The position numbers were made by a program, and so were the translations under genes. Positions 9,331 through 61,580 of a stretch of DNA of 64,000 nt are shown here, in pieces. Below the pieces are notes generated by a model. The model searched no databases. It was given only the letters and a program-made list of their open reading frames with translations, and was not told the DNA's origin. Origin of the DNA: Eledone cirrhosa (taxonomy: Eukaryota). The stretch spans positions 159,216,001-159,280,000 of the forward strand of contig OZ024742.1 of assembly GCA_964016885.1 (NCBI GenBank), in the 5' to 3' direction. Position 1 is the first letter of the stretch. Every line of letters begins with the position of its first letter.

Positions 9331-9488
9331 TGTATATATGTATATATATATATATAGTGTGAAACGTTTTTCGAAATATTTACTTCTGCGTTCACAGATT
9401 GATTTTTTTAGTTTCAGAAGATCCCGTTAAAGGTGAAAGCAGCGATTCTTCGCTTAAACTTTAATCTGTTATATATATATATATATAC

Positions 9489-9569
<81 letters not shown>

Positions 9570-9748
9570 GAAATACGTCCCTTCACGCACAAGGCGCCAA
9601 GGTACGCATGTATTGTCCAACCAAGTGCCAGTGTGGTTCAATGGCGGGTTAATAAATTAACGAGCCAGAACAAATATAAACAAGGTTTAGTAAATAATGA
9701 AAAAGTTTCAAAATAAATTTTAAAAAATTGACTTTACCTACTATAGTT

Positions 9749-9832
9749 ACCTTTACCGATCGGTTTCGAATCCCAAAAATAAAACGGAGACCATACGGCC
9801 TTCGTTGCAAAGAAATATTCTCGTCAGAAGGT
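9749..9832 (-). ncRNA. Type I hammerhead ribozyme (family J)
   Basis: acctt CTGACGA gaat...attc GAAA ccgatcgg TA aaggt. Confidence 0.85.
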
Positions 9833-10633
9833 TCTTTTCATTCAAAGAATATAAAATTCCTGAATTTAAATCACAAACTAGCGCTATCAAAACTGTTCCT
9901 GGGATGAGAGTGGATGATGTAGAACAGGTTTATCAAGGGCCGTAGCAAAGATAGAGGCAAAAGGAGGTAGGTCAAACTAGCCACAGCTATTGCTAGCAGC
10001 AGTCAGAACGACCAAATTTGTTCTCAACGTTAGTGGAGGTAGTAGTAATAGGAAATACGTCCCTTCACGTACAAGGCGCCAAGGTCCGCATGTATTGTCC
10101 AACCAAATGCCAGTGTGGTTCAATGGCGGGTTAATAAATTAACGAGCCAGAACAAATATAAACAAGGTTTAGTAAATAATGAAAAAGTTTCAAAATAAAT
10201 TTTAAAAAATTGACTTTACCTACTATAGTTACCTTACTATAGTAGGTAAAGTCAATTTTTTAAAATTTATTTTGAAACTTTTTCATTATTTACTAAACCT
10301 TGTTTATATTTGTTCTGGCTCGTTAATTTATTAACCCGCCATTGAACCACACTGGCACTTGGTTGGACAATACATGCGTACCTTGGCGCCTTGTGCGTGA
10401 AGGGACGTATTTCATATTACTACTACCTCCACAAACGTTGAGAACAAACCGGGTCATTCCGACTGCTGCTGACAACAGCGGTGGCTAGTTTGACCTACCT
10501 CCTTTTGCCTCTATCTTTACTACGGCCCTTGATAAACCTGTTCTACATCATCCACTCTCATCCCAGGAACAGTCTTTGATAGCGCTAGTTTGTGATTTAA
10601 ATTCAGGAATTTTATATTCTTTGAATGAAAAGA

Positions 10634-10717
10634 ACCTTCTGACGAGAATCTCTCTTTGCAACGAAGGCCGTATGGTCTCCGTTTTATTTTTGGGATTCGA
10701 AACCGATCGGTAAAGGT
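10634..10717 (+). ncRNA. Type I hammerhead ribozyme (family J)
   Basis: acctt CTGACGA gaatctc...gggattc GAAA ccgatcgg TA aaggt; palindromic stem III. Confidence 0.88.
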
Positions 10718-10784
10718 AACTATAGTAGGTAAAGTCAATTTTTTAAAATTTATTTTGAAACTTTTTCATTATTTACTAAACCTT

Positions 10785-10835
<51 letters not shown>

Positions 10836-10838
<3 letters not shown>

Positions 10839-10989
10839 CGTTTCTGAATTTGTTTAGCAAGATTCTTTATCTGAAAACGTGTGTTGAAACCGATATTGTT
10901 ATACTTTGGGAGGGTCATGTTGCCAATAAGAAACACACGCACCATGTGCGTGTTATTGGCAACATGACCCTCCCAAAGTATAACAATAT

Positions 10990-11409: not shown

Positions 11410-11418
<9 letters not shown>

Positions 11419-12036
11419 TAAACGGAATAGAAAATGCTGACAAATTGTTCACAGTTGAAAAATGGTTTAATTAGGAATAAAAGAGTATTAGTGATTGTAT
11501 GGGTTAGTATTCAGTTGTGGTTTTAAGTTTTTTAAGTTTTTAAGTTTTTACCGGTTGCGCATTTCTAAATGCTTTTCAAAAATAATTTTGAGATAGAGTG
11601 TCCGTGTTGTTTGCTCTGATCTGATTAGTTTTGGGAATTCTACCTGTTTTTATGTTAAAAAAGTGGCTCCAGCGTTACTTTCGTGTTGCAAAAATTCTTG
11701 TGGTCAAAACAATTCGCATGACCTCTACCGACCAATCAAAATTGTTTTGACCACAAGAATTTTTGCAACACCAAAGTAACGCTGGAGCCACTTTTTTAAC
11801 ATAAAAACAGGTAGAATTCCCAAAACTAATCAGATCAGAGCAAACAACACGGACACTCTATCTCAAAATTATTTTTGAAAAGCATTTAGAAATGCGCAAC
11901 CGGTAAAAACTTAAAAACTTAAAACCACAACTGAATACTAACCCATACAATCACTAATACTCTTTTATTCCTAATTAAACCATTTTTCAACTGTGAACAA
12001 TTTGTCAGCATTTTCTATTCCGTTTACCAATATATA
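11410..12036. repeat. Fold-back element with ~300-bp arms (11410-11714 and 11740-12036) between (TA)n tracts
   Basis: Direct reverse-complement match of the arms; ~25-bp spacer. Confidence 0.85.
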
Positions 12037-12065
12037 ATAACTTGTGTGTTACACCTCTATTCTTT

Positions 12066-12103
<38 letters not shown>

Positions 12104-12108
<5 letters not shown>

Positions 12109-15100
12109 TAGGTTTATTTACAATAGTTTATAACTTTGCCTAATAATCCGCATGGTGAGCAAATGGGGTTCCACGTGCTAGCCTCCCCCACAACCCCGGC
12201 AGACAGGATGGAGAAGGCGTTTCCCCGGAGGATGGTAGGGGAGATGCGCTGGAAGAGCCATTCCAACTCGCCTATGGTGGTGAATAGGGAGGTAGCTCTA
12301 GAGCCAAGGACACCAGAAGTTTCCACTGCCAAGGGCACGACCGCGAACCTGTCGGAGAGCGACCGGTACTTGGAGAGTTTGGGTTCCTCAGCCCCACATG
12401 CAGCAGTACCTGGGTTAGTCGCAGACTGCACCAGGTTGCGGCTGGAGAAAGTGTCGCTGCAAGTGGCATCACAGACGTGGGGTTTGCCACCACGAAACGG
12501 GAAGATGGTCATACCGTCTGGCCTTTTGCCATTCCCTCAGTCCAGCCCCACCGGCTCAAGCTGGGAGGGATAGCCTGCAGTGTCCAAGCCAGTCTTAATG
12601 ACCTCGTTGAGGGCAGCATGGCGTGGAAGGCGGCCGGCACTGTGGCGACAGGAAAGCGGATGGAGGCCGAAAGCGTCCACGGTGGATCCACAGCGACATT
12701 TATGTGGCTCGCAGATCCGGAATCCAAGCCTCAAGGAAACGCCGATGCGCAAGCTATCGTTATCCAGCTGCATGCCAGTGGAGAAGGAAGGAAAGGCACG
12801 GAGCCAGGCACTACTGTGGGGTTCGGAGGCCGCGCGAAAACAGGCAAGGTGGTGCTGGTCGAGCTGGCGCATGAGTTTGTCTGAGGCGAGGCTGCATTGG
12901 ATGGCATCCCATACGCTTTGGGGGGACTTGGCGTTAGCAAGGGGAGAAGGAGGAGGGACGTCTACTGGGCTAAGTCCCAGTCTGTCACATGTCTCACAGG
13001 CGACCTCACGTTCCCTGAACACAGAGGGTTCTATTATGTTTTGGAGAACCCTGCCGACCAGGACGCGACATGAAGTTACCGATGAAAGAAACGCCGGCAA
13101 AGCCAGCGAGATCGGGGTCAGGAAGTCAAGGCCCACATATCTGACAGGTCAAGTGGCCTGTTGCCATCCAATGTCGTCAAACCTGACGTTGCATACTTCT
13201 TCAGCTGCCGCTCGGATACAAGTATCGAGGTCAGCGAAGAGAGATGCGTGGCTGTAGCATGGAGCGCTGCGAAGGGTGTAGAGGAGCTTCGGCACGGCGA
13301 AGCAGTTCCTCAACAGGAAGAGAACTGGGTGGCCGTCGATCAAGCCCAGTCGGCTCGTGAGAGTCTGGAGTTGTTGGAACCTAGACCTGATGGTAGAGTG
13401 GATGGCCGGCGGGTGGATCGGTGACCCGAGGATGAGGACATCCTCTTTGGGGGTCACCTGGTGGAGAATGGACCTCACGCCCGAGACGGAAGCTGCAAAG
13501 CTCTCAGCATCATGGCTAACATTCACCACCTCCGACTTGGACGAGTTGACCTGGAGGCCGATTCCCGCCAGGGCAGGAACCACCGATTGGCAGACAGTCT
13601 CGACGGTCCCGCACAGCATAGCATCATTCTGGTACCAAACGTTGAGAGGGGGCCGTGATACTCCGGGAAATGCGTGTATATACCAAGGTCAAACAGGACG
13701 GGGTCCAAAGGGTCGCCCTGTTGGACCCCAGTGGCCAAAGGTATGACCGTATCAGCAGCAAGGAGCATGCTCGAGGCTCCATATGACAAGTAGGCCAGTG
13801 GGTAGGAGGAGGGGGCTCGGCTGAGGTAGGCATCGAGCAGATAGTCCGGGTGTATGCAGTTAAAGACATTCCTCATGTCAAGCTTGACAATGAGGTGTCT
13901 GGAGTCCCTGGATGCCGGTTCTGGTGGGCAGCTATTGAAGAACTGCCTGGTTGCATGTGCGGCCCCGTCACAGCCACCGGACACGCCGAGACTCAGTTGC
14001 ACCGGACTGAACTCCTCACCCAGTTCAGGTGTTATGGACCTGCAGACCACCTTAGCAGCCAGCCTCCGGAAGACATTGCCCACAGCGATGGGGCGTATGC
14101 CGCCTTCTTTCTTCCTGCACTCAGAAGGCGGGGCCCGGCTTCAGTGGAGAGGGAGGATAGCAACTCCTTGAGGTGGCCTGGTCGGAGACCATCAGCACCT
14201 CCTAGCTACTGCTAGCTGGGAAGGACTTGATAGCAGACATGATGTCTGCGTCGGAAGCCACAAGGAGCAGGTGGGGATCGGATAGGGGTATGAGTCGGAG
14301 ATCAGCGGGTGGATGAGGGTGCTTGAGTCGCAGGGCAGCCAGTGGTTGGAGGACAGTGTCCTCTGAGGCAACCACTCTTACTGCGATCGAGAAATCACCC
14401 ATGATAAGTTTATGATAATGGGCGCTTGCCTAAAGGGCGAAACATTGGCCTTGACAAAGGCTGCTGTCGACAGGCCGCCTCGGTCAGCGCCAGAGCTGGC
14501 GAGGCCGAGGGTGAGTGGGGCGAAATAGTAGAGGCGCTTCCAGTCGCTAGCTCGATTGGAGTCCAGAGTACTCTCGATCGAGGAAGCGAGGGCATCGGCT
14601 ACCGGCACCCGGGCCGTCCCTGGGATCCTGAGTGGAATCTTCCGGAGCCGCCTGAGCCGAGCGATGTTGATCAGCGAGGCTTGGGCATGAGGCAAGCTCG
14701 CTGTCTTATCTGGTGGAGTGCTAGATGGCCGTAGCTGGGCAGACGAGGGGAAGAGGCAGTTCCTGCATCTCCACGCTGCGGGGTCACTGGAAGTCCGACG
14801 CGTCAAGCCAACACAGGTGAGGTGGTGGAAGCAGCCGCACCCCGAACAGTTCCGGCCCCTGTTCCGTCTATTCTTGGTGCTGCAAGTGCTACAGATGTCG
14901 ACTGATGGGGATGGAGGATGGGGCGTGGAGCCGAGGACTGAGGCACCAAGCGGTATCAGGGGTGAGTGGCTGGTTGTCACCAGCCTAGGTGCTAGGCACA
15001 ACTGCATGTGGATGGAAGGGAAAGTGTTGGTATGAGTGAGGCCTCATAGCTCACCTACATCAGATATGGAGGCGACAGAAGACAAGATAAAGGAGAAGGG

Positions 15101-15417: not shown

Positions 15418-16198
15418 ATACACACACACAAATATACAATACACACACATACACACACATACACACACACAGACGCGCATATATATATAAACACATACAT
15501 ATATGCATACATATATTCATGTGGAAAGATGGAGGAAATGCAATTGATACTCCATCTTGGAAAAGCGTATGCTAAATACGTCCAAACATTTTGAGTAGAA
15601 TTGCTTTAGACACTCAAATTTGAAATGAGACGCACAGAAACGAAATACCATACTTATTAATAATACGTCCAAATGTTCAACATGATCGAGTTTATCTTTC
15701 TTTCTAAGGTTGGCCTTTATTGTCGTTCGAGGTTACATTAACAATGGAAGTTAATAATAGAGAATGCCACATGGATGACCAAATGCTTGCTAATCGTGTA
15801 TCAAATGTCGTTCTATTTTGGGTCTGAGATACATATGTCTGTATTTAATGCCAATTGTCATGATTCTGCATTGCATGTAACTGAGAAGAGGCATCTATGT
15901 ATGTAATAGTTTTGGTTAAAGCTGCAAATCGTCAGCTGAGATTAAAAGTCATCTTTGCTTTATATGTCTCGGTGAGTAAAATCTTGAATATATAATGCTC
16001 TGCAAAACACAGATTTTAGTCTGTGTAAAGCATATCACCAGTGAAACATATGTAATATCTAATTAAATGAGTATATGATGCAATACTGATTCTTTGTTCC
16101 CATTTATTATTGTTACTATTGTTACTCTGCTCCCCAAGAGCATCGAGTGCTTATCTTGGCATACCGCCTGTGAACGCAATTCATTCATTTGCACTTCT

Positions 16199-16271
<73 letters not shown>

Positions 16272-16277
16272 AAGTAT

Positions 16278-16423
16278 GACCCCGACGGCAGAGCTCAAGC
16301 CTTCGAAAAGGCTTGAGCTCTGCCGTCGGGGTCATACTTGTTCCTATTACCCACTCTACTACTCTAAGTATTGAGTACTTTGGTGCGTTATGGTCCATCT
16401 GGTTCCTTACCACAATTCCTTTG

Positions 16424-16425
<2 letters not shown>
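16278..16425 (+). repeat. pLTR-like family N fragment starting with a perfect hairpin
   Basis: gaccccgacggcagagctcaagcc...ggcttgagctctgccgtcggggtc; homologous to 26290-26445 and 61010-61580. Confidence 0.7.
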
Positions 16426-18222: not shown

Positions 18223-18321
18223 ATATATATATATATATACGTTATTCCGGGTTGAATCAGAGGTAACCACAATAAGTAAGGTACTCAATACATTGCAGAG
18301 TATAAAAGTTTTAATATAGAT

Positions 18322-18434
18322 GAGATTCTACAGGACTAGAACTGTTTCATTCTTTAGAAATCATCAGGATTCCTGATTATCGAGATTCCTGATGGTTTCT
18401 AAAGAATGAAACAGTTCTAGTCCTGTAGAATCTC
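18322..18434. ncRNA. Back-to-back inverted hammerhead pair (18322-18372 on -, 18382-18434 on +)
   Basis: gagattc CTGATG(G/A) tttctaaagaat GAAA cag-ttctagtc-ctg TA gaatctc; the minus copy has canonical CTGATGA. Confidence 0.75.
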
Positions 18435-18435
18435 A

Positions 18436-18496
<61 letters not shown>

Positions 18497-21104: not shown

Positions 21105-21153
<49 letters not shown>

Positions 21154-21280
21154 AAAGTTTTATTTAAAATTGTTGGGTTACAACGAGTAAATATTTTATA
21201 ACTGATATAAAGCACTCAACAAGTTTTGGAGTAGATATACGATATTAAACAAATGGAAACTATATTTATAAAACCATATT

Positions 21281-21480
21281 TATTTCATTATACATATTTC
21301 AGAGATACCATATTAAAAATATGGTATGCCTTCTTCAGATAAAATACAATATATAAGCAGTTTTATAAATAAATTTGACGTACCATAAAATATTGATCAA
21401 ACTGCTTATATATTGTATTTTATCTGAAGAAGGCATGCCATTTTTTAATATGGTATCCCTGAAATATGTATAATGAAATA
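21281..21480. ncRNA. Inverted hammerhead pair (21281-21346 on -, 21416-21480 on +) in fold-back pLTR 21150-21546 (family R)
   Basis: tattttat CTGAAGA aggcatacca...tggtatc(t/c)ct GAAA tatgta TA atgaaata. Confidence 0.8.
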
Positions 21481-21543
21481 AATATGATATGTATAATGAA
21501 ATAAATATGGTTTTATAAATATAGTTTCCATTTGTTTAATATC

Positions 21544-21612
<69 letters not shown>

Positions 21613-26451: not shown

Positions 26452-26685
26452 ATCAATGATATTAATAAATGGAAACTATCTTTATGAAACCATATTTATT
26501 TTATTATATATATTTCAAGGGTACTGGTACCCTTGAAATATATATAATAAAATAAATATGGTTTCATAAAGATAGTTTCCATTTATTAATATCATTGATA
26601 TTATACTCCAGAAGAATACTGCAGAGTGCTTCGAATCTGTTATAAATAAATTTGTTGAATAACCAACAAATTAAATATCTCTTTG

Positions 26686-26690
<5 letters not shown>
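26452..26690. repeat. Fold-back fragment of pLTR family R, centred at ~26525
   Basis: tttcaagggtac-tg-gtacccttgaaa centre; arms match 21240-21300 and 60450-60510. Confidence 0.8.
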
Positions 26691-27244: not shown

Positions 27245-27997
27245 ACTAGAAATTGTTTGACATATATATATATATCAAAAATAAACACATGAAACAATCA
27301 CAGGGGATAATTTGTAAAGTGTCTAAGCACACACAGCTAGGTAACTAATTGAAGTTTAACTAGAACTTCAAATATAGATACCTTTTAAAATGATTAATCT
27401 TCCTTGTATATATTTCATTAAAGAAATATATTTCACCATTAATCCGTAAATCGCAGTAGTCAAATATCGAATTTTCAACAAGGGAGAAGATTTAACTATC
27501 TGTGTTTACACAGCAAATGCAAATCTGCGAATGATCCGTAGCACGTGTTGCATTTAAAAAAAAATACACACATCGTACCAGCGTCATCCCAGTGGCGTGA
27601 ATAGGATTATCGACAGCTAGAAATAGCAGCCGAGTCCTTTCAATTGAGTTAGCTCTACAATTAAGGGGCCGTATATATATCCAAAATTAAATTAAGGGTG
27701 TCATGTCCAAGAGACATGCGCCATGTCCACTGTAGAATAAGCTCAAAGATTCCAATGAATAGATCTGAGCATTTTATATCAACAAGAAATTGATTGACAC
27801 ATATATATATCTAAAATAAACACATGAAACAATCACAGGGGATAATTTGTAAAGTGTGTAAGCACACACAGCTAATTAATAGAACTTCAAATATAGATAC
27901 CTTTTAAAGCTGTGTGTGTGCTTACACACTTTACATATTATCCCCTGTGATTGTTTCATGTGTTTATTTTAGATATATGTGTCAATCAATTTCTAGT
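26728..27997. repeat. Family S: multiply inverted element including a ~1.2-mer of a ~537-bp unit
   Basis: caac(t/a)agaaattg.ttgaca at 27243 and 27780; inversions at ~26822, ~27225 (TA tract) and ~27908. Confidence 0.75.
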
Positions 27998-36104: not shown

Positions 36105-37567
36105 GGCATACCTGACTTTTAACGGTCTGAAGAATGAAAGTAAATTTATTTTCATTTTCAACGTCATGAAAATGAAACTACATTTATTGTCATTAATTAT
36201 TTTCATTTTCGATTGTAAATGTTGTTGTTGATACTGTCCGTTCTGTTATGGCTTGATTCAAGCCATAACAGAACGGACTGGGGTCATAAAAAGGGCAGAG
36301 AATGAGAACGGATTGGGGTCAGAAGGGCAGAGAATAGTCTGTTTTTAAAACAAAGCACCAGAGGGCACGATTTTACTACAATCTCATATCAAATATGTCT
36401 GGACGAGTATATGGTCGCAGTACCTTAGCTGATGATATTTTCGATACAAATGATATCCTTAATCATAATGAAACAATATATACACTAATACCTGCGATAC
36501 ACGGTGACACTGTGTTGGCGAGACGGCGTTTGTTGGCAAACAGTGTCAATTGTCCTGTTTGTAATGAGGCGTGCCGATTGCAACGATATTCTGAGGGTGT
36601 CGATAAATGGAGATGGCGATGCAACCGCGACAAATTCAGTCAATCGGTGCGACGGAATTCTTTTTTCGAACGAAGCCATGTGCGACTGGATCACATTATT
36701 GGTATTTTATACATGTAGTGCTATGATCAGGCACACGTACAGATCATTAGAGAAACGGGAGTCTCCGAACGGACAGTTATAGAACGGACAGTTATAGAGA
36801 AATTTGTGAGCAGTATTTGGAGGCAAATCCTCAAGAACTTGGAGGCTTCGATGATAATGGTGAGTCGATCATTGTAGAGATCGACGAATCGAAATACTTC
36901 CATAGAAAGTATCATCGTGGCCAGTGGAAGCAAGGCCACTGGGTCTTCGGCGCTGTTGAACGCCATTCTGAACGCTGCTGCCTTGTAGAAGTCCCAGATC
37001 ATAGCCGTGAGACTCTCGTCCCCATTATTCAGCAGTGGATTTTGCCAGGCAGCCGCATCATCTCGGATGGTTGGGCTTCCTATTCGGAAATTGAAGAAAT
37101 TGAAGGTGGTATTTACCTCCATGATGTTGTGGTGCACCAACGGAACTTTGTCGATCCTGCAGACCCTGATGTGCACACACAACTCATAGAGAACACGTGG
37201 AGCCGTGCGAAGAAGAAGCTTCGTCGCCAGCATGGGACCAGCAATACTTTATTCCCCTCATATCTAGCTGAATTTCTTTGGCGGCAGAGAGTTGGTGCCA
37301 ACAAGTTTGGCGAAATGCTAAACTGTATTGGAGCTATTTACAGGGTGTAGTAAAGATTTTAATAAGGTTGGTCAATTTAAATTTTATATGCAACAAACGT
37401 TTAAATATGTACTTTTTTTCAACACACAGAACGGACAGTATCAACAACAACATTTACAATCGAAAATGAAAATAATTAATGACAATAAATGTAGTTTCAT
37501 TTTCATGACGTTGGAAATGAAAATAAATTTACTTTCATTCTTCAGACCGTTAAAAGTCAGGTATGGC
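36105..37567 (+). mobile_element. Merlin (IS1595/ISXO2-like) DNA transposon with ~142-bp TIRs
   Basis: TIRs 36105-36246 and 37426-37567, left one starting GG; inserted in (TA)n. Confidence 0.92.
36395..37350 (+). pseudogene. Merlin transposase, interrupted by a stop at ~36716 and a 15-bp duplication at ~36767-36796
   Basis: CPVC...WRC zinc ribbon, SVRRNSFFE; catalytic motifs VEIDESKY, IISDGWASY, HTQLIENTW. Confidence 0.9.
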
Positions 37568-42659: not shown

Positions 42660-45600
42660 CAAGCTGACGTACCCAGCTTCGCCCGGGTAAACAGATGATA
42701 AGAGAAGACAGGTAAAAGAGAAAATGACTGTATTGGATGTTTGTCTGGTTACAGTATGAGGCGAGTCCGTGGTGTCTGTGTGATACAGAAAACAGTTTTA
42801 AAAAATCTTCCAGATATACCAGATTCTTCATTGTACCGTTTGTGCATAGTATATGAACAATTCTAGGTGCTCCCACCTAGAATAGTGACCTCTAAGAGAT
42901 GGTTCATCTTCTACCTGACAGTAAAACGTGTATCATTGCATAGACGTGGTTGTTCCACGTTTCTCAAAAGGATGATGGAAGTTCCAATCTTTTATATTAT
43001 ATGTAGATATAGATATAGATAATTAATATAAAATATGTCCGTCAATGTAAAAAAGGTCCCTATTTACTTGAAATGGTTTATACAAATGCCAAATTATTAT
43101 GGATATGGATAACATGCTTATCTATAAGTGGTCAGCTATAATAATAAAACAACAAATTATATGACACAAAAATTTATTCAGTAATTTCCAGGCTCTTAGC
43201 TACAGAGTAATAGACAGTCAATGTTGCACAGAGTTCAGTTCGGGGAGGTGGCCTGGTTTGAACTCCAAATGACGGATCCTTCTACTTCGAAAATAGAATC
43301 GTTTTTCAATATTACTCTAGCCCTGGCCGGCCATAGGCACCAAGCCTTTTGCCAGACTCAGCATATGATGAGGTTTTATTACCACTGCAATCAGAAGTGA
43401 TACATTTGAAGGCAATTTCTACCAATACTTGTTGGTTTTTATTGCTCATTATCGACAATAAATGACATTGAACATAAATGATAACTCTGTCAAAGCTCAC
43501 AATACTGATCAAAGGACACCAATGTCTGAATCATTTATGTCGCTTATTGATAGCATTAAAGATATGCATACATCAGCTCAAAGTTTCATTATAGACAATA
43601 TTCAGGGTTGTTCCTCTGTTAGTGGTATCAATTGCAAATTTTATACCATCAGGATCGCACACTCGAGATGCAGCAACATACAGTTGCCCATGGCTGACTA
43701 CTGGATCATTCAAGTAGACACCGAGTTTAGCTTCTAAAACTCTTCCGATAATCAATCTATCAACAATCAATCTGGCACCATTGCAAAGACCCATTTTATG
43801 ATTGATATTTCTAAGCAATATAATCGGCATACCCTTTTTCAACCTCAAAATATGTGGGGGAAATCCGGGTATTTGAAGTGAATTCAGATACTCAGTCGGA
43901 ACATCCACATTGATCTGCTGATTAGGCTCCATTGCATCCACACTGACGGTCAACCATTCCTCTCCAGGAAACATTCCGGCTACTTGTGAATTTATTTCAT
44001 CGACCGTTGCATTCGTATGAATTAGAATAACGCGTTCTGATATCCAGGAGATATTCTGCCAAAAAGCATTCAAATTAGGGAACACCCAGTCAATCAATGC
44101 TTGGCGGTCCAGTGGCATGACCAAATGGTCTGGGATTCTTACAGTCTGATTATCACTAACGTGTGGCAATTCATCGTTTCCCAGCTGCATCAACCATCGG
44201 CCGTATGTCTCAGCCTTTTCGTTTTGCCCGAATATACGAAGTCGCATATTATCGTGTAATCGCAAAACTCTGAAATGGCGCCACAACGGGGACTTTTTCA
44301 GACATGCATCGACAATTTGCGCTCTTTGAGCATTCCTAACAATTGGTAGCACCTGTCTGAAATCGCCACCAAGAACGATAGTCTTACCACAGAATGGCAG
44401 GTCACTACCGAAGATATCTCTCAAAGTTCTGTCCAATGCCTCCAGCAAATATCTGTGTGCCATTGGAGCCGCGTCCCAAATAATCAGAGACGTATTGCGT
44501 ATAAGGCCCGCGAGTTCACTTTTTCCTGTAATGTTACAGACTCAACTCATCCGGAGGCAATGAAGCCTTGAAGCATGAGTGGAAGGTCCTTCCACCACTC
44601 AGCAAAGTGGCAGTGATCCCACTGGTGGCCACAGGGAGAGCAATCTTCCTCTGAGCTCTGACTGCCGATAACATAGTGTTGAAACAGAATGTCTTTCCGG
44701 TGCCTCCTGGAGCATCTATGAAAGCACACAGTTGCTCGTTAGTGGAAATCGAGTGGAGAACACCATCGACCAATTCTCTCTGAGATTGGGTCAACATTGG
44801 CATACGTTCATCCACAATACGTTACTGTTCCAGTGGATCAAACTGGAATAGTTCCCTCCGATCGAGTGGCAACCGTCTAAGCTGCAATCTCATGTTCAAT
44901 GCTAAGACACGTTGCCGCATTTCTTCATCAGGAATTGGCAAATTGAAATCTCTTAAACATTTCAAATGAACTTCAAGCAGTTGCTCAATATTGAGCAAAA
45001 CAATAGCCTTCATCAAATGTTCATCATCGACCTGAAGATGATGCCTAAAATCATCAGTCCTAATTCCCCAATGGCGTTCAAATAACTCTCTTGTAGAATC
45101 CTAGAATCGTGACAAACAACTGCCTTATTTGAGCTGGCATCTGTGTTCCTGCAGCTTCCATGGCGTTATTCCATTCAGCGTCATCCTGAAGGAGTCCCAG
45201 ATGTTGACACACAGCTTGGTATGTTTCATATTCCACGCCATTGATTGTTTTCAAATCAGCGAAGCTCTGTTTACCTCTCGAAAACTCACTATGCAACAGA
45301 ATTCGGAGATAAAACACATCACCAGATGCTGGATGAACATTACAAACCCATCCAATAGTCATGAATCTCAACTTTTGTTTTCTATCATTCCATTTCTTTC
45401 CCTTCTTATCCCACGTATAGTGCGAAGGGAAATCGCAGTAGAGTTGCCTTTGATTCGGGTTCAAAGCATGTTCCCTATTATGCTTGAACCACTCAGTCAA
45501 TTATTGTGTCTATTGCCACCTCCCTGTTGATGCTGATTCTCATGATCATCTAACTGAACAGACTGAACAGATATGTTCCATCCATTTTCACCTTTTGGGA

Positions 45601-47266
45601 ATAAAAGAACATAATGCAATGGATCGTATGCCCTATTTGACTCATTGATAGTCTTGAGACCACCATCTCTGCGATTGAGGACGATATCTCTCGATCCAGG
45701 CTTATCGTCCATCAACACAGAAACTTCACGAAATCCTTCAGGGGCATTATATCGCCTTTCGTGTTGATTCCTTGGCATTGCGTCAGCCTTTATCGCCAAT
45801 GTTTGCTGCCGAACATTTTGCATTTCAGCCACCAACATGAAATCCATAACATAAGGATTACACTCTCTAAGCCATGATTGAAAATCACGGATCAAATCAC
45901 TTAACCTTTGCCGTTCAAGTTCAGTTATATTTCCTGGCAACTTCATCCAACCGATCCTGATATCCTCCTCCGATTCACTATAATCTGGATCGTTATTGTA
46001 AATTTGAGCGAATCGAGGCCTCTCTTCTGGGGTAACTTCTAAATTACCGATACAATGATACAAACGGCCTTGAATGACTACATTCGGTTGCCATGCTCCA
46101 CTCTCAAACATCTCACTAACTCTCTGCGATGCTAAAGCTAATGGATTGTTAATTTGCCGCGAATATTTGCGCAGTAATCTACCTCGGTCTCCTTGATCAC
46201 CCCACATACTTAGTAGTTTAAACTCCGGTGACTCCTCATCATCCGGCATTCGCAAGGGTTCTAGTTGAACTGCTCCTTTATGACAGCACATTGTGGTCCA
46301 CGTCTTTTCGTGCCTCCAAAGCAATGCTCAACAATGTGGACACTCTGCTCGTCCACCAATCTGAAAATGATACGGTTGCCATGATCTATTTTTAATATCA
46401 TTCGTTCGCCTTCTAGCCTCTTTACTGGAATGAGGAGCACTTTGGCGACACATTCTCTGAACTTCTGTATTGCGCTGGCGCTGTTCAGCCAGCTCCTCTT
46501 CATCCATCGCAGCACGCCGTTGCTGCTGAATTCTGGCCATCTGCTGATGATGCTCAGCCAGTTCGTCTTCAACCATCGCAGCACGCCGTCGCTGCTTGAC
46601 TCCAGTGTTTCGTTGGCGTTGTTCATCCAGCTCCTCTCCATTCATGGTGGCACGCCTACGCCTCTGAAGTTGGGCGTTCCGATGGCGCTGTTCGTCCCGT
46701 TTTTCTCCATTGCTGGCTGCACGCCGTCGCCGCTGTAGTTCGCTGTTTGATAAAGTCGAATTGCTTTTATTATCAGTATTCATTTCGAGCAATTGTCAAA
46801 AATTGACACAATAATAAATATAAAACATGTTCGGCAATGTAAAGAAAGGTCCCTATTTACTCCCTTCACAACTCTGTGTATGTTAGACTGACAGACAGGC
46901 ACACAGACAGATAAACTGCGTGACAATTGTGGAACGCCACATACATACACGCATGGAAACGCGCACACGCACGCAAACTTACACACGCACACATAAAAAA
47001 CATGTTGATAGTTTTTACTTTCTGTGGAACGCTGCACGCACGCACACACACATAAACACACGCACACGTACATACACACGCACACATGTTAATAGTTATT
47101 GAACACAGCGTTCACACTCTCCCCTCTCACTCCCTCATTGGCATTATGCATATTAATTTCAGTTTGGCGTCGTTGAGGTGGGCGGAGTCGTTTGAAACCT
47201 ATGAACCAATGATAATCGAGAATTATGACACACGGAATACTGACGTTCTTCAAATTAATAAATAGA
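42660..47266 (-). mobile_element. Helitron, internally deleted and decayed
   Basis: 5' A|TCTATTT; 3' hairpin cccgggcgaagctggg plus CTTG|T. Pif1 motifs DAPGGTGKT, VATSGITATLLSGGRTFHS, LGGDFRQVLP, LLRNI...LCNG; CPHC..CCHKG, RFAQIY, YDPLHYVLLFPKGENGW. Confidence 0.92.
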
Positions 47267-49770: not shown

Positions 49771-50286
49771 CAAGGTTTAGCAAATAAGAAAAAGTTTCAA
49801 AATAAATTTAAAAAAATTAACTTTACTCACTATGGTTACCTTTACCGAATCGGTTTCAAGTCTCAAAAATAAATGGACAGTCCTTACGGCATCCATTGCA
49901 AAGATAAACTCTCGTCAGAAGGATCTTTTCACTCGGAGAATATAAAATTCCCGAGTTCAAATTACGAACTGGCGCTATTCAAAATTGTTCCCGAGATGAG
50001 AATAAATGAAGTGGAAGCAATTCCTTCAAGTGCCGTGTGTAAAGATAGAAGCAAAGGCAGGGAGGTCAGTCTGCTACCGCTATAACTAGCAGCAGTCAGA
50101 ACGACCAAATTTTTTTCTCGACCAAGAGGGGAATAATAATAAAGTATATATCCCTACACGCACAAAGCGCTTAGGGACACATGTATTGTCCAACCATATG
50201 CCAATGTGGTTCAATGGCAGGTTAATAAATTAACGAGCCAGAACATATATAATCAAGGTTTAGCAAATAAGAAAAAGCTTCAAAAT
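49771..50286 (-). mobile_element. Family J second copy (~1.07-mer) with hammerhead at 49839-49922
   Basis: caaggtttagcaaataagaaaaag at 49771 and 50254 (period 483); cctt CTGACGA gagtt...gactt GAAA ccgattcgg TA aagg. Confidence 0.85.
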
Positions 50287-50557
50287 ATATATATATATAT
50301 ATGTATGTATAGACAACTGATGAGGAAACGCCCCCCCCCCGTTCTTGATTTCTTCGTATTCCCACTGCATTTTAAGTTACCTTAAATAGCAACTACACAA
50401 CCATTTCTATTCTCCATATATTTCATTATATATATCCCGCCGAGGTTAACTTTGCCTTTCATCCTTACGGGGTCGATAAAATAAAGTACCAGTAATGCAC
50501 TGGGTAATTGCTGGCCTTGTGCCAAAAGTAGAAACAATTATATATATATATACATAC

Positions 50558-50815
50558 AGTTGATTCAGGTTTATTTAAAGCTATACATATTTCACTGAGG
50601 ACTATCAATTATGATAGTCCGAGCTCTTCAAACGGCAAAACCTAAAATAAACTTATACAGTTCCTAAGAAACCTAGATTTTTCAAAATTTAAAGGTTTCT
50701 TAGGAACTTTCTAAGTTTATTTTAGGTTTGGTCGTCTAAAGAGCTCAGGCTATCATAATTGATCGTCCTCAATGAAATATGTATAAGGCAGTTTTAAATA
50801 AACCTGAATCAATTG
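50558..50815. repeat. Fold-back with a degenerate hammerhead in each arm
   Basis: (t/c)t(g/a)aaga gctc.ggactatcataattgatagtcc.. GAAA tatgta TA; core mutated in both arms. Confidence 0.6.
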
Positions 50816-50959
50816 AATATGGCCTCCGATATTTTATTAATATATAACGCTCCGTCTTGTACCATTTATACAGGTCATTGAGCGCCTCTTTTTATCTGCT
50901 TCACAACCGACAGACCATGGTATGATCCGCACGTCCCGGTTCTATTAACCCCTTACTAT

Positions 50960-51058
<99 letters not shown>

Positions 51059-51099
51059 TTCAAAATATTTAAAAAAATAGACATTCGTGTGATCAAGTA

Positions 51100-51166
51100 T
51101 ATTTTATTATACATATTTCAGAGGTACTGAGCTAACTTCAACAGTACGTCCTCATCAGATAAAATA
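51100..51166 (-). ncRNA. Type I hammerhead
   Basis: tattttat CTGATGA ggacgtactg...cagtacctct GAAA tatgta TA ataaaata. Confidence 0.82.
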
Positions 51167-53176
51167 AGATGATGCATGACATACCCTGACATAGTAGATG
51201 GTTAAGATTCAGTCATGGTAGTGAATAAGGTATGACAAAACTCAATATTTATATACCTTAAGATTGAGACATGAAAAAATTTACATATAATACAGAGGAT
51301 GCGTGTGAGAAAGCTTAAAAATACATAATAGCAATTTACATAACTGTTAGTAATTCAAATAATTTAAGTTATTGAAGAAAGAAGAAAGAAGAAAGACAGA
51401 GAGAAACAGATGAGGAGAAAATATAGTTACTAGAAGTATAGAAAGCAAAAGAGAATTGATCAAGGATAGAGAGACAAGGAGTAATAATTTTTATAGTATA
51501 AAGCATAGGGAGGGATGTTTGTATTGTCGTGGATGAATAGGGTGTGATTAGATAATGCAAAAATTATATATATCTATACAAACACATGAATATACATTTA
51601 GGCATAGCTTTGTGAAAGATTAAACTCGAATCTTTGAATTATTGAATTATATAGAAGTATCCACAAGCGAGACAGCAACACACACACACACACACAGTAG
51701 CATTCCATCATACGAACATACTACACTGCCAATACAGAGGAACAAGGCAACAACACACGCACACACACACTCAAGCGAGACAACAACACACGCACACACA
51801 CACACACACACAGTAACATTCACCAAACAGGCAGGGAATGGACTGACAGCTAGCACCACCCCACTCCCACAATTGAAAGAACTACTTCGGCCGATGACCT
51901 CTGCCTGACCGACCCCATTTCACGCGCATGCGTGCTCTGCTGAATACCTCAGATATTCAAAACAACGAACAGCGGAGGACACGTTTCGCACCTTTCCGAC
52001 AGACAACCCCACCCCCGGAAAAAACCCCAGTTGATGGATGTGAATCCGAAATATATAGGGACAATTAAATCTCTCCTAAGGTAACTCTTTCTCGTGTTGT
52101 TATTTTTATTTTTATCCTTTACGCTCTTTGCTTCATTCCTCTACACGTTACAGTCTTATACACGCCACGCATCTCAACGTACACCCACTTACATCTCTCT
52201 CTCCACCACCGGATCTTGTTACCCGGAGATTTACCCATCTGCATTGTCGAGGCTTCTAAACGACTTATTATTCCACAAAGCTTCAAGCAAACTTCAATAC
52301 TCTCTTATATATTTAAATATATATTTAATATAATATAAGATAATATAATTTAATATGGATTACCTTCGTGAGGATGAAAATATTAAGTATTCCTTCTCAT
52401 GTTTGCAAATACTTTAAATATGATTTTATAAATTAAATATAATAGTATACTTTAATATTAATATAGATATTTATAAACTTTTATAGCCTGAAATATTATA
52501 CATTTTGATTAATTCATTATTCTAAACTAACATAAATGATTTTAAATTTAACGGTCAGCCGGATACGTTTGGATATATATAGTGTATATAATTAATTGTT
52601 AGTATATTTCTAATTAACTAAGGACTCGATTTTAAACCTTCATATAATTACACCCAGATATATTTAATATTTAGATTGATGGATACTTCTAGTTAATTCA
52701 ATAATTCAAAGATTCGAGTTTAATCTTTCACAAAGCTATGCCTAAATGTATATTCATGTGTTTGTATAGATATATATAATTTTTGCATTATCTAATCACA
52801 CCCTATTCATCCACGACAATACAAACATCCCTCCCTATGCTTTATACTATAAAAATTATTACTCCTTGTCTTTCTATCCTTGATCAATTCTCTTTTGCTT
52901 TCTATACTTCTAGTAACTATATTTTCTCCTCATCTGTTTCTCTCTGTCTTTCTTCTTTCTTCTTTCTTCAATAACTTAAATTATTTGAATCTCTAACAGT
53001 TATGTAAATTGCTATTATGTATTTTTAAGCTTTCTCACACGCACCCTCTGTATTATATGTAAATGTTTTCATGTCTCAATCTTAAGGTATATAAATATTG
53101 AGTTTTGTCATACCTTATTCACTACCATGACTGAATCTTAACCATCTACTATGTCAGGGTATGTCATGCATCATCT

Positions 53177-53243
53177 TATTTTATCTGACGAGGACGTACT
53201 GTTGAAGTTAGCTCAGTACCTCTGAAATATGTATAATAAAATA
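53177..53243 (+). ncRNA. Type I hammerhead, mirror of 51100-51166
   Basis: Same layout with a CTGACGA core. Confidence 0.82.
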
Positions 53244-53385
53244 TACTTGATCACACGAATGTCTATTTTTAAAAATATTTTGAATTAATATTAATAACTC
53301 CGGAAAACCAAAGCTTGTTGAGTGCTTCCAATCTATTGTAAAAATCATTCTTTGATTTATTCATTGAACCTTGTTTAACCTTTAA

Positions 53386-53419: not shown

Positions 53420-53996
53420 TGTTATACTTTGGGAGGGTCATGTTGCCAATAAGAAACACACGCACCAGTTGCTTTCACTTCAATTTATTATATATTTATA
53501 AATTTATAAATTTACAAATTTATAAATTTCTGGTTGGTTGGTTGGTTCCACAACCAGATAGTTGTTTATATATAGTCATAGTTCTTTCGTCACACACTCT
53601 GTGACCTCTTCAGTGACTGGGAATTCCTTTCTCTGTTTCTGTGCCTCTCCTTTGTTCTGTCCTACGCCATTTTGTTTCTGTGAAACAAAATGGCGTAGGA
53701 CAGAACAAAGGAGAGGCACAGAAACAGAGAAAGGAATTCCCAGTCACTGAAGAGGTCACAGAGTGTGTGACGAAAGAACTATGACTATATATAAACAACT
53801 ATCTGGTTGTGGAACCAACCAACCAACCAGAAATTTATAAATTTGTAAATTTATAAATTTATAAATATATAATAAATTGAAGTGAAAGCAACTGGTGCGT
53901 GTGTTTCTTATTGGCAACATGACCCTCCCAAAGTATAACAATATCGGTTTCAACACACGATTTCAGATAAAGAATCTTGCTAAACAAATTCAGAAA

Positions 53997-54000
<4 letters not shown>
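53414..54000. repeat. Family K pLTR forming a near-spacerless ~265-bp palindrome (centre ~53680); hammerheads at 53574-53618 (-) and 53742-53786 (+)
   Basis: agtca CTGAAGA ggtcaca-gagtg-tgtgac GAAA gaac TA tgact. Confidence 0.82.
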
Positions 54001-60340: not shown

Positions 60341-60488
60341 ATATATATATATATATATGCAAAAGTTCTATTTAAATTGTTGGGATACAACAAGCCTATA
60401 TTTTTATAACTGATATAAAGCACTCGACAAGTATTTGGAGTAAATATACGATATTAACAAATGGAAACTATATTTATAAAACCATATC

Positions 60489-60897
60489 TATTTTATTATA
60501 CATATTTCAAGGATACCATGTTAAATTATGGTATGCTTTCATCAGACAAAATACAATATATACCAGTTTTATAAATAAATTTTGACATACCCTTTCAAAA
60601 TGTAACCGTTACTTTTGGAAGACATCAGGGATATTGGATTTGTTTATCTTAGTAAGTCATTGTGTTACGGAGAAGGAAAAAGACGGTTTTTCTCTCCCTC
60701 CGTCTTTTTCCTTCTCCGTAACACAATGACTTACTAAGATAAACAAATCCATTATCCCTGATGTCTTCCAAAAGTAACGGTTACATTTTGAAAGGGTATG
60801 TCAAAATTCATTTATAAAACTGGTATATATTGTATTTTGTCTGATGAAAGCATACCATAATTTAACATGGTATCCTTGAAATATGTATAATAAAATA
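60489..60897. ncRNA. Inverted hammerhead pair (60489-60553 on -, 60833-60897 on +) in fold-back 60358-60940 (family R)
   Basis: tattttgt CTGATGA aagcatacca...tggtatcctt GAAA tatgta TA ataaaata; arms ~245 bp. Confidence 0.85.
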
Positions 60898-60937
60898 GAT
60901 ATGGTTTTATAAATATAGTTTCCATTTGTTAATATCG

Positions 60938-61009
<72 letters not shown>

Positions 61010-61011
<2 letters not shown>

Positions 61012-61199
61012 CGAAGGAAATGTGGTAAGGAACAAGGTGGACCATAACGCACCAAAGTACTCAATACTTAGGGTAGTATAGTGGGTAATAGGAACGAGTA
61101 GGACCCCGACGGCTGAGCTCAAGCCGTTTCGACGGCTAATTCTGGACTACCGGAATTAGCCGTCGAAACGGCTTGAGCTCAGCCGTCAGGGTCCTACTC

Positions 61200-61283
<84 letters not shown>

Positions 61284-61578
61284 ATATGTGTGTGTATATA
61301 TATATTTATGTATATATGTATATATATAAATATATATATATATAAATATTGATATATATATACATATATATATATAGGAACGATTAGGACCCCGACGGCT
61401 AAGCTCAAGCCGTTTCGACGGCTAATTCTGGACTAAAGTTTAGTCCAGAATTAGCCGTCGAAACGGCTTGAGCTCAGCCGTCGGGGTCCTACTCGTTCCT
61501 ATTACCCACTTTACTACCCTAACTATTGAGTACTTTGGTGCGTTATGGTCCACCTTGTTCCTTACCACATTTCCTCCG

Positions 61579-61580
<2 letters not shown>
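61010..61580. repeat. Two family N fold-backs (centres ~61147 and ~61438) carrying hammerhead 3' halves
   Basis: gccgtc GAAA cggct-tgagctc-agccg TC (g/a)gggtcc on both strands; no CTGANGA. Confidence 0.75.

Follow-up and report, generated by a model that had tools for sequence, protein, structure and literature searches.

A young hammerhead retroelement of the retrozyme kind in Eledone cirrhosa, apparently moved in the fashion of Penelope-like elements

The window analyzed in this study, a stretch of 64,000 nt of the Eledone cirrhosa genome, holds at 9565-10790 a unit of ~482 nt that is present as two opposed arms in (TA)n, joined 5' to 5' at 10235/10236 (Table 1). A first-pass annotation had read 9567-10790 as one tandem array, a reading that gives way to this opposed pair; it had overlooked the second arm, which is inverted, and the nearly strict rule, described below, by which two fixed 3' ends are paired. 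Several of its structural claims are borne out: the unit period is 482 at 9570/10052 and 483 at 49771/50254, each unit has one hammerhead, with cores in the plus arm, the minus arm and the copy at 49.9 kb, and there is no credible reading frame. When both strands are read with the unit as a circle, the longest ATG frame measures 14 aa in unit A and 75 aa in subfamilies D and E. We number the unit in the hammerhead sense, position 1 being the base that follows the predicted cut between GUA and AAGG. The terminal partial unit of the minus arm equals unit B of the plus arm over 176 of the 176 nt compared, and the palindrome ACTATAGT adjoins the head-to-head joint. The copy at 49.9 kb starts around unit position 33-42, crosses the hammerhead and stops at the proximal 3' site. 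Subfamily units are 482-486 nt long with a GC content of 0.36-0.38; no open reading frame for a reverse transcriptase (RT) plus GIY-YIG endonuclease occurs in the unit, and no LTR-body-LTR layout was seen in the loci examined.

Table 1. Coordinates of the unit copies and of the small head-to-head elements in the window.
Feature	Position	Strand	Remarks
Left (TA)n target tract	9470..9566		
Minus arm, terminal partial unit (variant B')	9565..9753	-	Unit positions 1-189; ends at distal 3' site (~188) in TA
Type I hammerhead of unit A	9748..9834	-	Core CTGACGA 9827-9821; predicted cut 9754/9753
Minus arm, full 482-nt unit A	9754..10235	-	5' end exactly at the predicted hammerhead cut
Head-to-head joint	10235..10236		Unit position 1 against position 7; no overlap or insert
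Plus arm, unit B	10236..10712	+	Unit positions 7-482; 17 substitutions and 1 indel relative to unit A
Type I hammerhead of unit B	10632..10718	+	Core CTGACGA 10639-10645; predicted cut after 10712
Stems I and III of unit B hammerhead	within 10632..10718	+	Stem I CCTT/AAGG; palindromic stem III ACCGATCGGT
Stem II of unit B hammerhead	10646-10652 with 10692-10698	+	Closes a loop of ~39 nt
Plus arm, terminal partial unit	10713..10790	+	Unit positions 1-78; ends at proximal 3' site (~80) in TA
Right (TA)n target tract	10788..10836		
Single-armed subfamily D copy	49771..50284	-	~80% identity to unit A; TA on both sides
Hammerhead of the 49.9-kb copy	49837-49925	-	Core CTGACGA 49918-49912; predicted cut between 49843 and 49842
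Small head-to-head (TA)n elements	1685-2478, 2646-2933, 10837-10989, 11415-12070, 16268-16424		
Small head-to-head (TA)n elements	18240-18437, 21151-21544, 26453-26687, 27680-27994, 50554-50956		
Small head-to-head (TA)n elements	51060-53385, 53420-53998, 60359-60937, 61011-61200, 61376-61579		

The ribozyme motif has the type I makeup, with the core CUGANGA, GAAA and UH, three stems and an open stem I. In an alignment of 15 sequences, drawn from subfamilies A, D and E and one older copy, 95.8% of the cells are paired and two-sided changes occur in 6 of the 16 pairs. These values were reached by 0 of 500 shuffles and the signal was lost on sliding the partners, a count that is not a probability because the rows were chosen by hand and are mutually related. 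In subfamily E, stem I has changed from CCTT/AAGG to CCCT/AGGG and the stem III palindrome from ACCGATCGGT to ACCGCGCGGT, a double change by which the palindrome is kept. Such a palindromic stem III fits cleavage as a dimer, by analogy with what has been published for animal type I hammerheads (PMC4209133). The covariation proposed earlier for stem II is likewise found (gaatc/gattc versus gagtt/gactt, an A-U to G-C change), the first pair being G-U in the 49.9-kb copy and G-C in most copies of subfamily D. Loop 2 is variable and ~40 nt long. Rfam called no hammerhead at gathering or E<=10 thresholds, probably because of this loop, and a loose hammerhead pattern missed the motif because the loop exceeds the gap of that pattern. 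The Rfam microRNA matches at the locus are artefacts of the long inverted repeat. In folds of the monomer the core is sequestered (CUGA with UCGG, pairing with stem III), with z values of -1.8 to +0.2 that do not rise above shuffles; circular folding gave z values of -1.8, -3.0 and -3.3 for units A, D and E, respectively (30 shuffles each).

The window copy is a mosaic. In the minus arm, the two units are not of the same variant, differing at 4 sites in 186 nt; a single circle read twice is therefore not demonstrated by the window on its own. Unit A is identical to the middle unit of another insertion (L001) located 1.93 Mb away on the same contig, and the remainder of the window element is variant B. 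The identity includes 166A and 420A, which are absent from the other units of L001; unit A has therefore moved from L001 to the window. Either the RT switched to the one cut-to-cut monomer available from L001 and ran off at its cut 5' end, or gene conversion from this neighbor took place, the latter being favored by the short distance. The presence of two variants was also considered as proof against a monomer circle and rejected, the copies elsewhere in the genome showing that the window is exceptional.

Among 19 inverted elements counted in the window (4 further self-inverted matches were left out), 16 have one side flush with TA and an extension of 28-138 nt on the opposite side; none is flush on both. 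The small head-to-head elements in (TA)n listed in Table 1 are unrelated, each has one end flush with TA and the other 28-138 nt longer, and several carry hammerhead-like cores; the two-site rule recurs across these families. Three further features were observed. A broken RT frame with a weak RVT_1 match at 12114-15043 (minus strand) is probably a decayed non-LTR retrotransposon; an ISXO2/IS1595-like transposase fragment (36751-37350) lies between 140-nt inverted repeats of 99% identity at 36107-37565; and PIF1 helicase fragments with 69-nt repeats upstream at 43573-46795 (minus strand) are probably a Helitron remnant. An Rfam match to Plastid-psbJ-2 at 16194-16341, although above the gathering score, was discarded as an artefact of a TA run plus a hairpin.

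The unit belongs to a dispersed family. Searches of the 3.0-Gb genome with units of three subfamilies returned 2056, 2719 and 2157 first-look candidates, of which 40 were scored per search, so that these figures are not copy numbers. The earlier suggestion that 3' ends coincide with internal TA-like motifs is upheld by exact matches to end/TA junction patterns, 546 for position 80 and 115 for position 188, with 0 for reversed controls. It had further been claimed that copies begin and end at different points of the unit. This is true of the 5' ends, which vary, but the 3' ends are fixed: in a first, score-biased sample, 127 of 134 arms end at ~80 or at ~180-194. Both sites resemble the target (GTTTATAT; CATAT or CCTAT, with TATTA/TACTA right behind), which is a microsatellite, the 3' ends lying in (TA)n, a repeat that masks any target-site duplication. 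Around the proximal site, unit positions 28-150 form the best-conserved part beside stem III, with identities of 0.83 and 0.86 across the three subfamilies versus 0.42-0.71 elsewhere in the unit. At 63 of 93 single-armed loci, TA lies no more than 12 nt from the 5' end. The family is young, as several multi-unit insertions are free of internal differences.

The two 3' sites are used one per arm. For an unbiased view we took the first 100 listed of the 546 position-80 junctions, corresponding to 99 insertions (90 retrieved for the sample and 10 from earlier retrievals). Their opposed arm ends at ~188 in 55 insertions, at 80 in 1 and elsewhere in 2, and none was detected in 41, among which a doubtful tiny partner arm at L118 was scored as none. 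Conversely, 43 position-188 loci, which overlap this sample, have a partner ending at ~80 in 28 cases, at 188 in 0, elsewhere in 4 and none in 11. The arms meet with an overlap of 1-9 nt in 33 of 63 joints, bluntly in 18 and with short inserts in 12. We looked for an accumulation of stops at the points where one arm would run into the primer of the other, and saw none. We conclude that reverse transcription very probably starts at two sites, each assigned to one of the two opposite target strands.

Within an insertion, the units, up to 9-12 in number, are largely of one variant. Comparisons of units at the diagnostic sites of subfamily A show differences in 34 of 1051 cases inside an arm and in 28 of 629 between the arms of a locus, versus 46159 of 150462 between loci. 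Homogeneity is weaker in subfamily D (42 of 253 within an arm versus 31% between loci), where 5 of the 14 diagnostic sites border homopolymers. Where a common clean variant is present, every unit that covers its site carries it in 524 of 552 cases, and it extends over both arms in 257 of 274. Of 162 locus-private clean variants, 144 are found in one unit, 13 in all units and 5 in some units. The loci behind these counts were de-duplicated by sequence signature, and a few may figure twice. The youngest insertions differ from one another by 1-4 nt and each has its own combination of variants in every unit, mostly on both arms: 15G plus 436G in 4/4 units of L182, 15G in 5/5 and 205T in 3/3 units of L401, 436G in 4/4 units of L186 and in 9/9 of L400, and three variants in 4/4 units of L403. 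Single arms hold 9 (L402), 8 (L400) and 5 (L399) nearly invariant full units. None of the 178 crossings of the cut site in the 99-insertion sample, nor of the 195 in the first sample, shows a length change. These observations make it likely that one monomer was copied many times without a visible seam; its simplest template is a closed circle, towards which we lean with less assurance. The same variant on both arms indicates the same source and not necessarily the same molecule.

Some arrays depart from this uniformity. In older ones (L405, L414, L027), mutations are mostly private to a unit and star-like, while private variants shared by part of the units (L029, L006) imply that copying between units occurs after insertion. 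In L006 (1383-3029), two private variants stand in alternate units, the second and the fourth, a pattern expected from duplication of two units or from a template that is a dimer. One insertion (L046 and L047; G000 C17, 7.69-7.71 Mb) is present three times, 5-6 kb apart, with identical ends but 3, 2 and 2 full units; this is probably a segmental repeat in which the unit number was altered after insertion.

Autonomous Penelope-like elements (PLEs) co-occur with the unit in the same genome, some with intact RT-GIY-YIG frames. The GIY-YIG profile PF01541 gave 10,595 candidates, of which 150 were scored. In the PLE loci retrieved, frames that combine RT and GIY-YIG reach 938 and 1096 codons and contain a C-x4-C-x2-C linker, a motif by which the elements appear Neptune-like (PMC8557442). 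A hammerhead-like motif in their 3' UTR is followed by two fixed ends in TA. Their head-to-head pairs combine one proximal and one distal end, in 7 of the 7 pairs of one family (L268) in which both ends are visible and in each of three pairs (L263, L266, L271) of another (L258). The latter family has an open 938-codon RT plus GIY-YIG frame with relatives of 97-98% identity, and matches the unit in stem I, in a palindromic stem III, in GGTA with AAGG beyond the cut and in the distance of 77-78 nt from the cut to its proximal end. On these motifs it is the best candidate partner of the unit, with which it has only short motifs in common. Its frame lies between two hammerhead-like motifs 4,979 nt apart (L258:2700-8000, G000 C1, minus strand), and its core reads TTGAAAA, not CTGANGA, a variant missed by the standard descriptor.

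A pLTR parent of the unit was sought among the PLEs, and the 110 loci compared, out of 150 listed GIY-YIG loci, gave no credible blastn match, the one 66% match lying outside the 3' UTR. No same-sense PLE protein match runs into the unit among loci L001-L227. The first-pass annotation had set its retrozyme idea against pLTRs with fixed ends that are contiguous with an RT frame. The 3' ends are indeed fixed, but they do not refute this idea because the units are not contiguous with a same-sense RT frame. One arm with the 189 end (L101:1369/1370, with L308) lies head to head with a truncated PLE of the L268 family that ends at its own proximal site. At L101 and L086, unit arms meet 5'-truncated autonomous PLEs head to head with no TA in between, the PLE family differing between the two loci; these chimeras may be separate insertions followed by deletion and thus do not name the partner. 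A unit-PLE contact at L306 was rejected as evidence, being a local duplication.

In this study, we propose that the unit is a non-LTR retrozyme, a protein-free and non-autonomous passenger of PLEs whose movement is almost certainly driven by them. Rolling reverse transcription by a Penelope-like RT had already been suggested from the window; the window alone does not carry this suggestion, but the genome-wide copies, with one variant per insertion and seamless junctions, do, together with the anatomy that the unit has in common with PLEs. The full explanation that we prefer, in which a PLE RT-endonuclease divides sites ~80 and ~188 between the strands and copies round a one-unit RNA circle released by the hammerhead, is moderately probable. 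A locus with at least two hammerheads would be transcribed, and the predicted cuts, probably made as dimers through the palindromic stem III, would release a cut-to-cut monomer that, by analogy with published retrozymes, could be ligated into a circle. A PLE protein would then bind the conserved, hairpin-rich positions ~28-190 and nick both strands of (TA)n, upon which the nicked TA end of one strand would pair with the TA-like motif at ~80 and that of the other with the motif at ~188, in keeping with the ends and their pairing as observed. Each RT would run backwards past the cut and on round the unit for ~330-400 nt on average and up to ~10 rounds, the extent that the observed arm lengths suggest. 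The two cDNA ends would finally be joined head to head, often via an overlap of 1-9 nt, as in the observed joints; where one strand yields little or no product, a single arm flanked by TA would result.

Published work agrees with parts of this scheme and conflicts with others. A PLE protein extends both strands from two internal start sites and is a predicted dimer (PMC11167929), and circles have been proposed as RT templates (PMC4209133; PMC7229834). However, the anole PLE needs no hammerhead cleavage in vitro and uses unprocessed RNA, and its start sites, as reported there, are not homologous to the target and are alike on both strands (PMC11167929). Our own data also hold points against the explanation, namely the monomer folds that sequester the core, the window mosaic, the weaker homogeneity of subfamily D, the private variants common to part of the units, the lack of alignable homology to 110 PLE loci and the length of arms with 9-10 units. 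With an average stop rate of 0.0028 per nt, arms of 2,800-4,900 nt are far longer than predicted.

The alternative that survives best, though we consider it unlikely, keeps the two-site PLE priming but takes as template an uncut linear multimer transcribed from a tandem copy, with a mostly idle hammerhead and no circle. Seamless junctions are just as compatible with this template; in vitro, cleavage by the hammerhead can be dispensed with, and the hammerheads of PLEs are poor cutters (PMC11167929; PMC4209133). Arrays of 9-11 units exist as possible sources. A daughter can, however, not be longer than its source, so each combination found in up to 9 units demands a separate, long and homogeneous source. 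New variants moreover start in single units (144 of the 162 private ones) and need a one-unit bottleneck to fill an array. We found no large master array among the first 100 of 809 internal-unit matches, the largest having 11 and 9 units, although an assembly can collapse such arrays; from the position-80 loci alone, 577 internal-unit matches are expected.

A still less probable template is a cut linear monomer held ring-like via stems I and III, with the RT jumping in each round from its 5' end to the 3' end of a monomer. Stops are about twofold enriched near the cut, with 23 versus 11.3 expected at positions 473-14 (a range chosen after inspection) and 4 versus 0.9 expected at 482/1. Unit A of the window stops precisely at the cut and is identical to the sole cut-to-cut unit that L001 has, down to two mutations private to that unit. 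The four-gamete patterns seen among young variants are suggestive of template switching. Yet when non-LTR RTs jump end to end they usually leave some indels behind, of which the 178 crossings show none. Intermolecular jumps should yield mosaics more often than the 28 of 552 cases seen, and none of the 167 unbiased stops falls exactly at position 1, which also rules out an arm start exactly at the cut as a rule.

We regard it as very unlikely that the arrays and their uniformity were made in DNA, by unit duplication and gene conversion after insertions slightly longer than one unit. The private variants common to some units of L029 and L006, the very long young arms that exceed the average length distribution, and a possible conversion of unit A from L001 at a distance of only 1.93 Mb would agree with such a process. 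Yet mutations in older arrays are mostly unit-private (144 in single units versus 5 partly shared), variants are common to opposed arms, which tandem duplication does not reach, and older arrays are not longer (Spearman -0.17, p 0.26, n 45).

The joints speak to the origin of the inverted arm. A self-primed fold-back copy of the first arm, as proposed for the pLTRs of rotifer Penelope elements (PMC3846280), could account for the 4 of 53 two-armed insertions whose 5' ends lie within 8 nt of each other and for the palindrome ACTATAGT at the window joint, but it is largely refuted here and scarcely credible, as 49 of the 53 joints lack symmetry and, in 17 of the 53 pairs, at least 15 nt of each arm have no counterpart in the other, which a mere copy of the first arm would not show. 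That the copies are merely 5'-truncated pLTRs of an autonomous PLE, whose remnants have the same ends, target and inversion, is of negligible probability given that the unit repeats itself up to ~10 times with no reading frame between the hammerheads, no same-sense PLE protein runs into it (L001-L227) and there is no homology to 110 PLE loci.

Returning to the circle model, we tentatively extend it to the possibility, to which we give somewhat less than even weight, that PLE insertion is obligately two-handed: an RT dimer on one ribozyme-made circle would use the proximal and distal sites from opposite strands, both hands rolling along the same ring. If so, the pseudo-LTRs, partial tandems, inverted copy and one-sided tail of PLEs would be by-products of a single reaction, with the still-active 482-nt unit as its minimal natural substrate.

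In summary, the sequence anatomy identifies the unit as a young non-autonomous hammerhead retroelement of the retrozyme kind that is moved in PLE fashion. The retrozyme class and the circle hypothesis are already published, while the genomic evidence on the mechanism is apparently new: in the mostly open-access literature searched, we found no report of strand-split use of two start sites or of one-variant-per-insertion evidence. The family bears on two open questions, the origin of the pseudo-LTRs, inverted copies and one-sided tail of PLEs, and the reverse transcription of retrozyme circles. On both it provides genomic evidence, as one variant fills all units and both arms and the start sites are split by strand. 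The unit is small and young and lies beside PLEs with intact frames, and the model is therefore directly testable in vitro.

A two-strand reaction is also known from LINE-1 twin priming, where both target strands prime cDNA and the joined products give a 5' inversion. There, the internal site at which the second primer lands is variable, and no part of the RNA is copied into both arms; both sites of the unit, by contrast, are fixed, and its two arms often contain the same stretch of the unit.

Earlier work has described non-LTR retrozymes together with their circular RNAs and has proposed rolling by a PLE RT (Cervera and de la Pena, 2020, PMC7229834; PMC4209133), and retrozymes have been linked to pLTRs (Li et al., 2026, bioRxiv 10.64898/2026.07.22.740005). 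PLE pLTR homology is reported for 24 of 57 Xenopus families and is thus not required of retrozymes; we found none in the 110 PLE loci compared. As in metazoan non-LTR retrozymes, each tandem unit carries one type I hammerhead and lacks an ORF, the GC content is 36-38% and PLEs are present in the same genome. Its length of 482-486 nt is above the 170-400 nt given for retrozymes in PMC7229834 but inside the 51-972 bp given in bioRxiv 10.64898/2026.07.22.740005. Loop 2 measures ~40 nt, and the copies observed are dispersed as arrays that do not exceed ~10 units; they show inverted arms of the PLE type and two fixed 3' ends, for which we found no description in these two sources.

Endonuclease-positive (EN+) PLEs of the Neptune-like type share with the unit the 5'-truncated partial tandem, the inverted 5'-truncated copy, the tail at one end only, the microsatellite target and a hammerhead located close to the 3' end (Craig et al., 2021, PMC8557442; Arkhipova et al., 2013, PMC3846280). 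The unit differs from them in that it has neither RT nor endonuclease, the whole element being the hammerhead-bearing unit, and in its tail of ~110 nt as compared to the 30-40 bp given for EN+ PLEs. Non-autonomous Chlamys elements such as MRC1 are likewise PLE passengers with multicopy head-to-tail insertions, but their 3' ends are similar to those of the autonomous partners, and canonical hammerheads, as far as described there, are missing from most Chlamys elements (PMC8557442). A further parallel is Poseidon of Anolis carolinensis, with two internal starts bracketing the tail, extension of both strands and an AT-rich target (Frangieh et al., 2024, PMC11167929). In the case of Poseidon the starts are reported as not homologous to the target and the same on both strands in vitro, whereas the sites of the unit are TA-like and split per strand in the genomic pairs.
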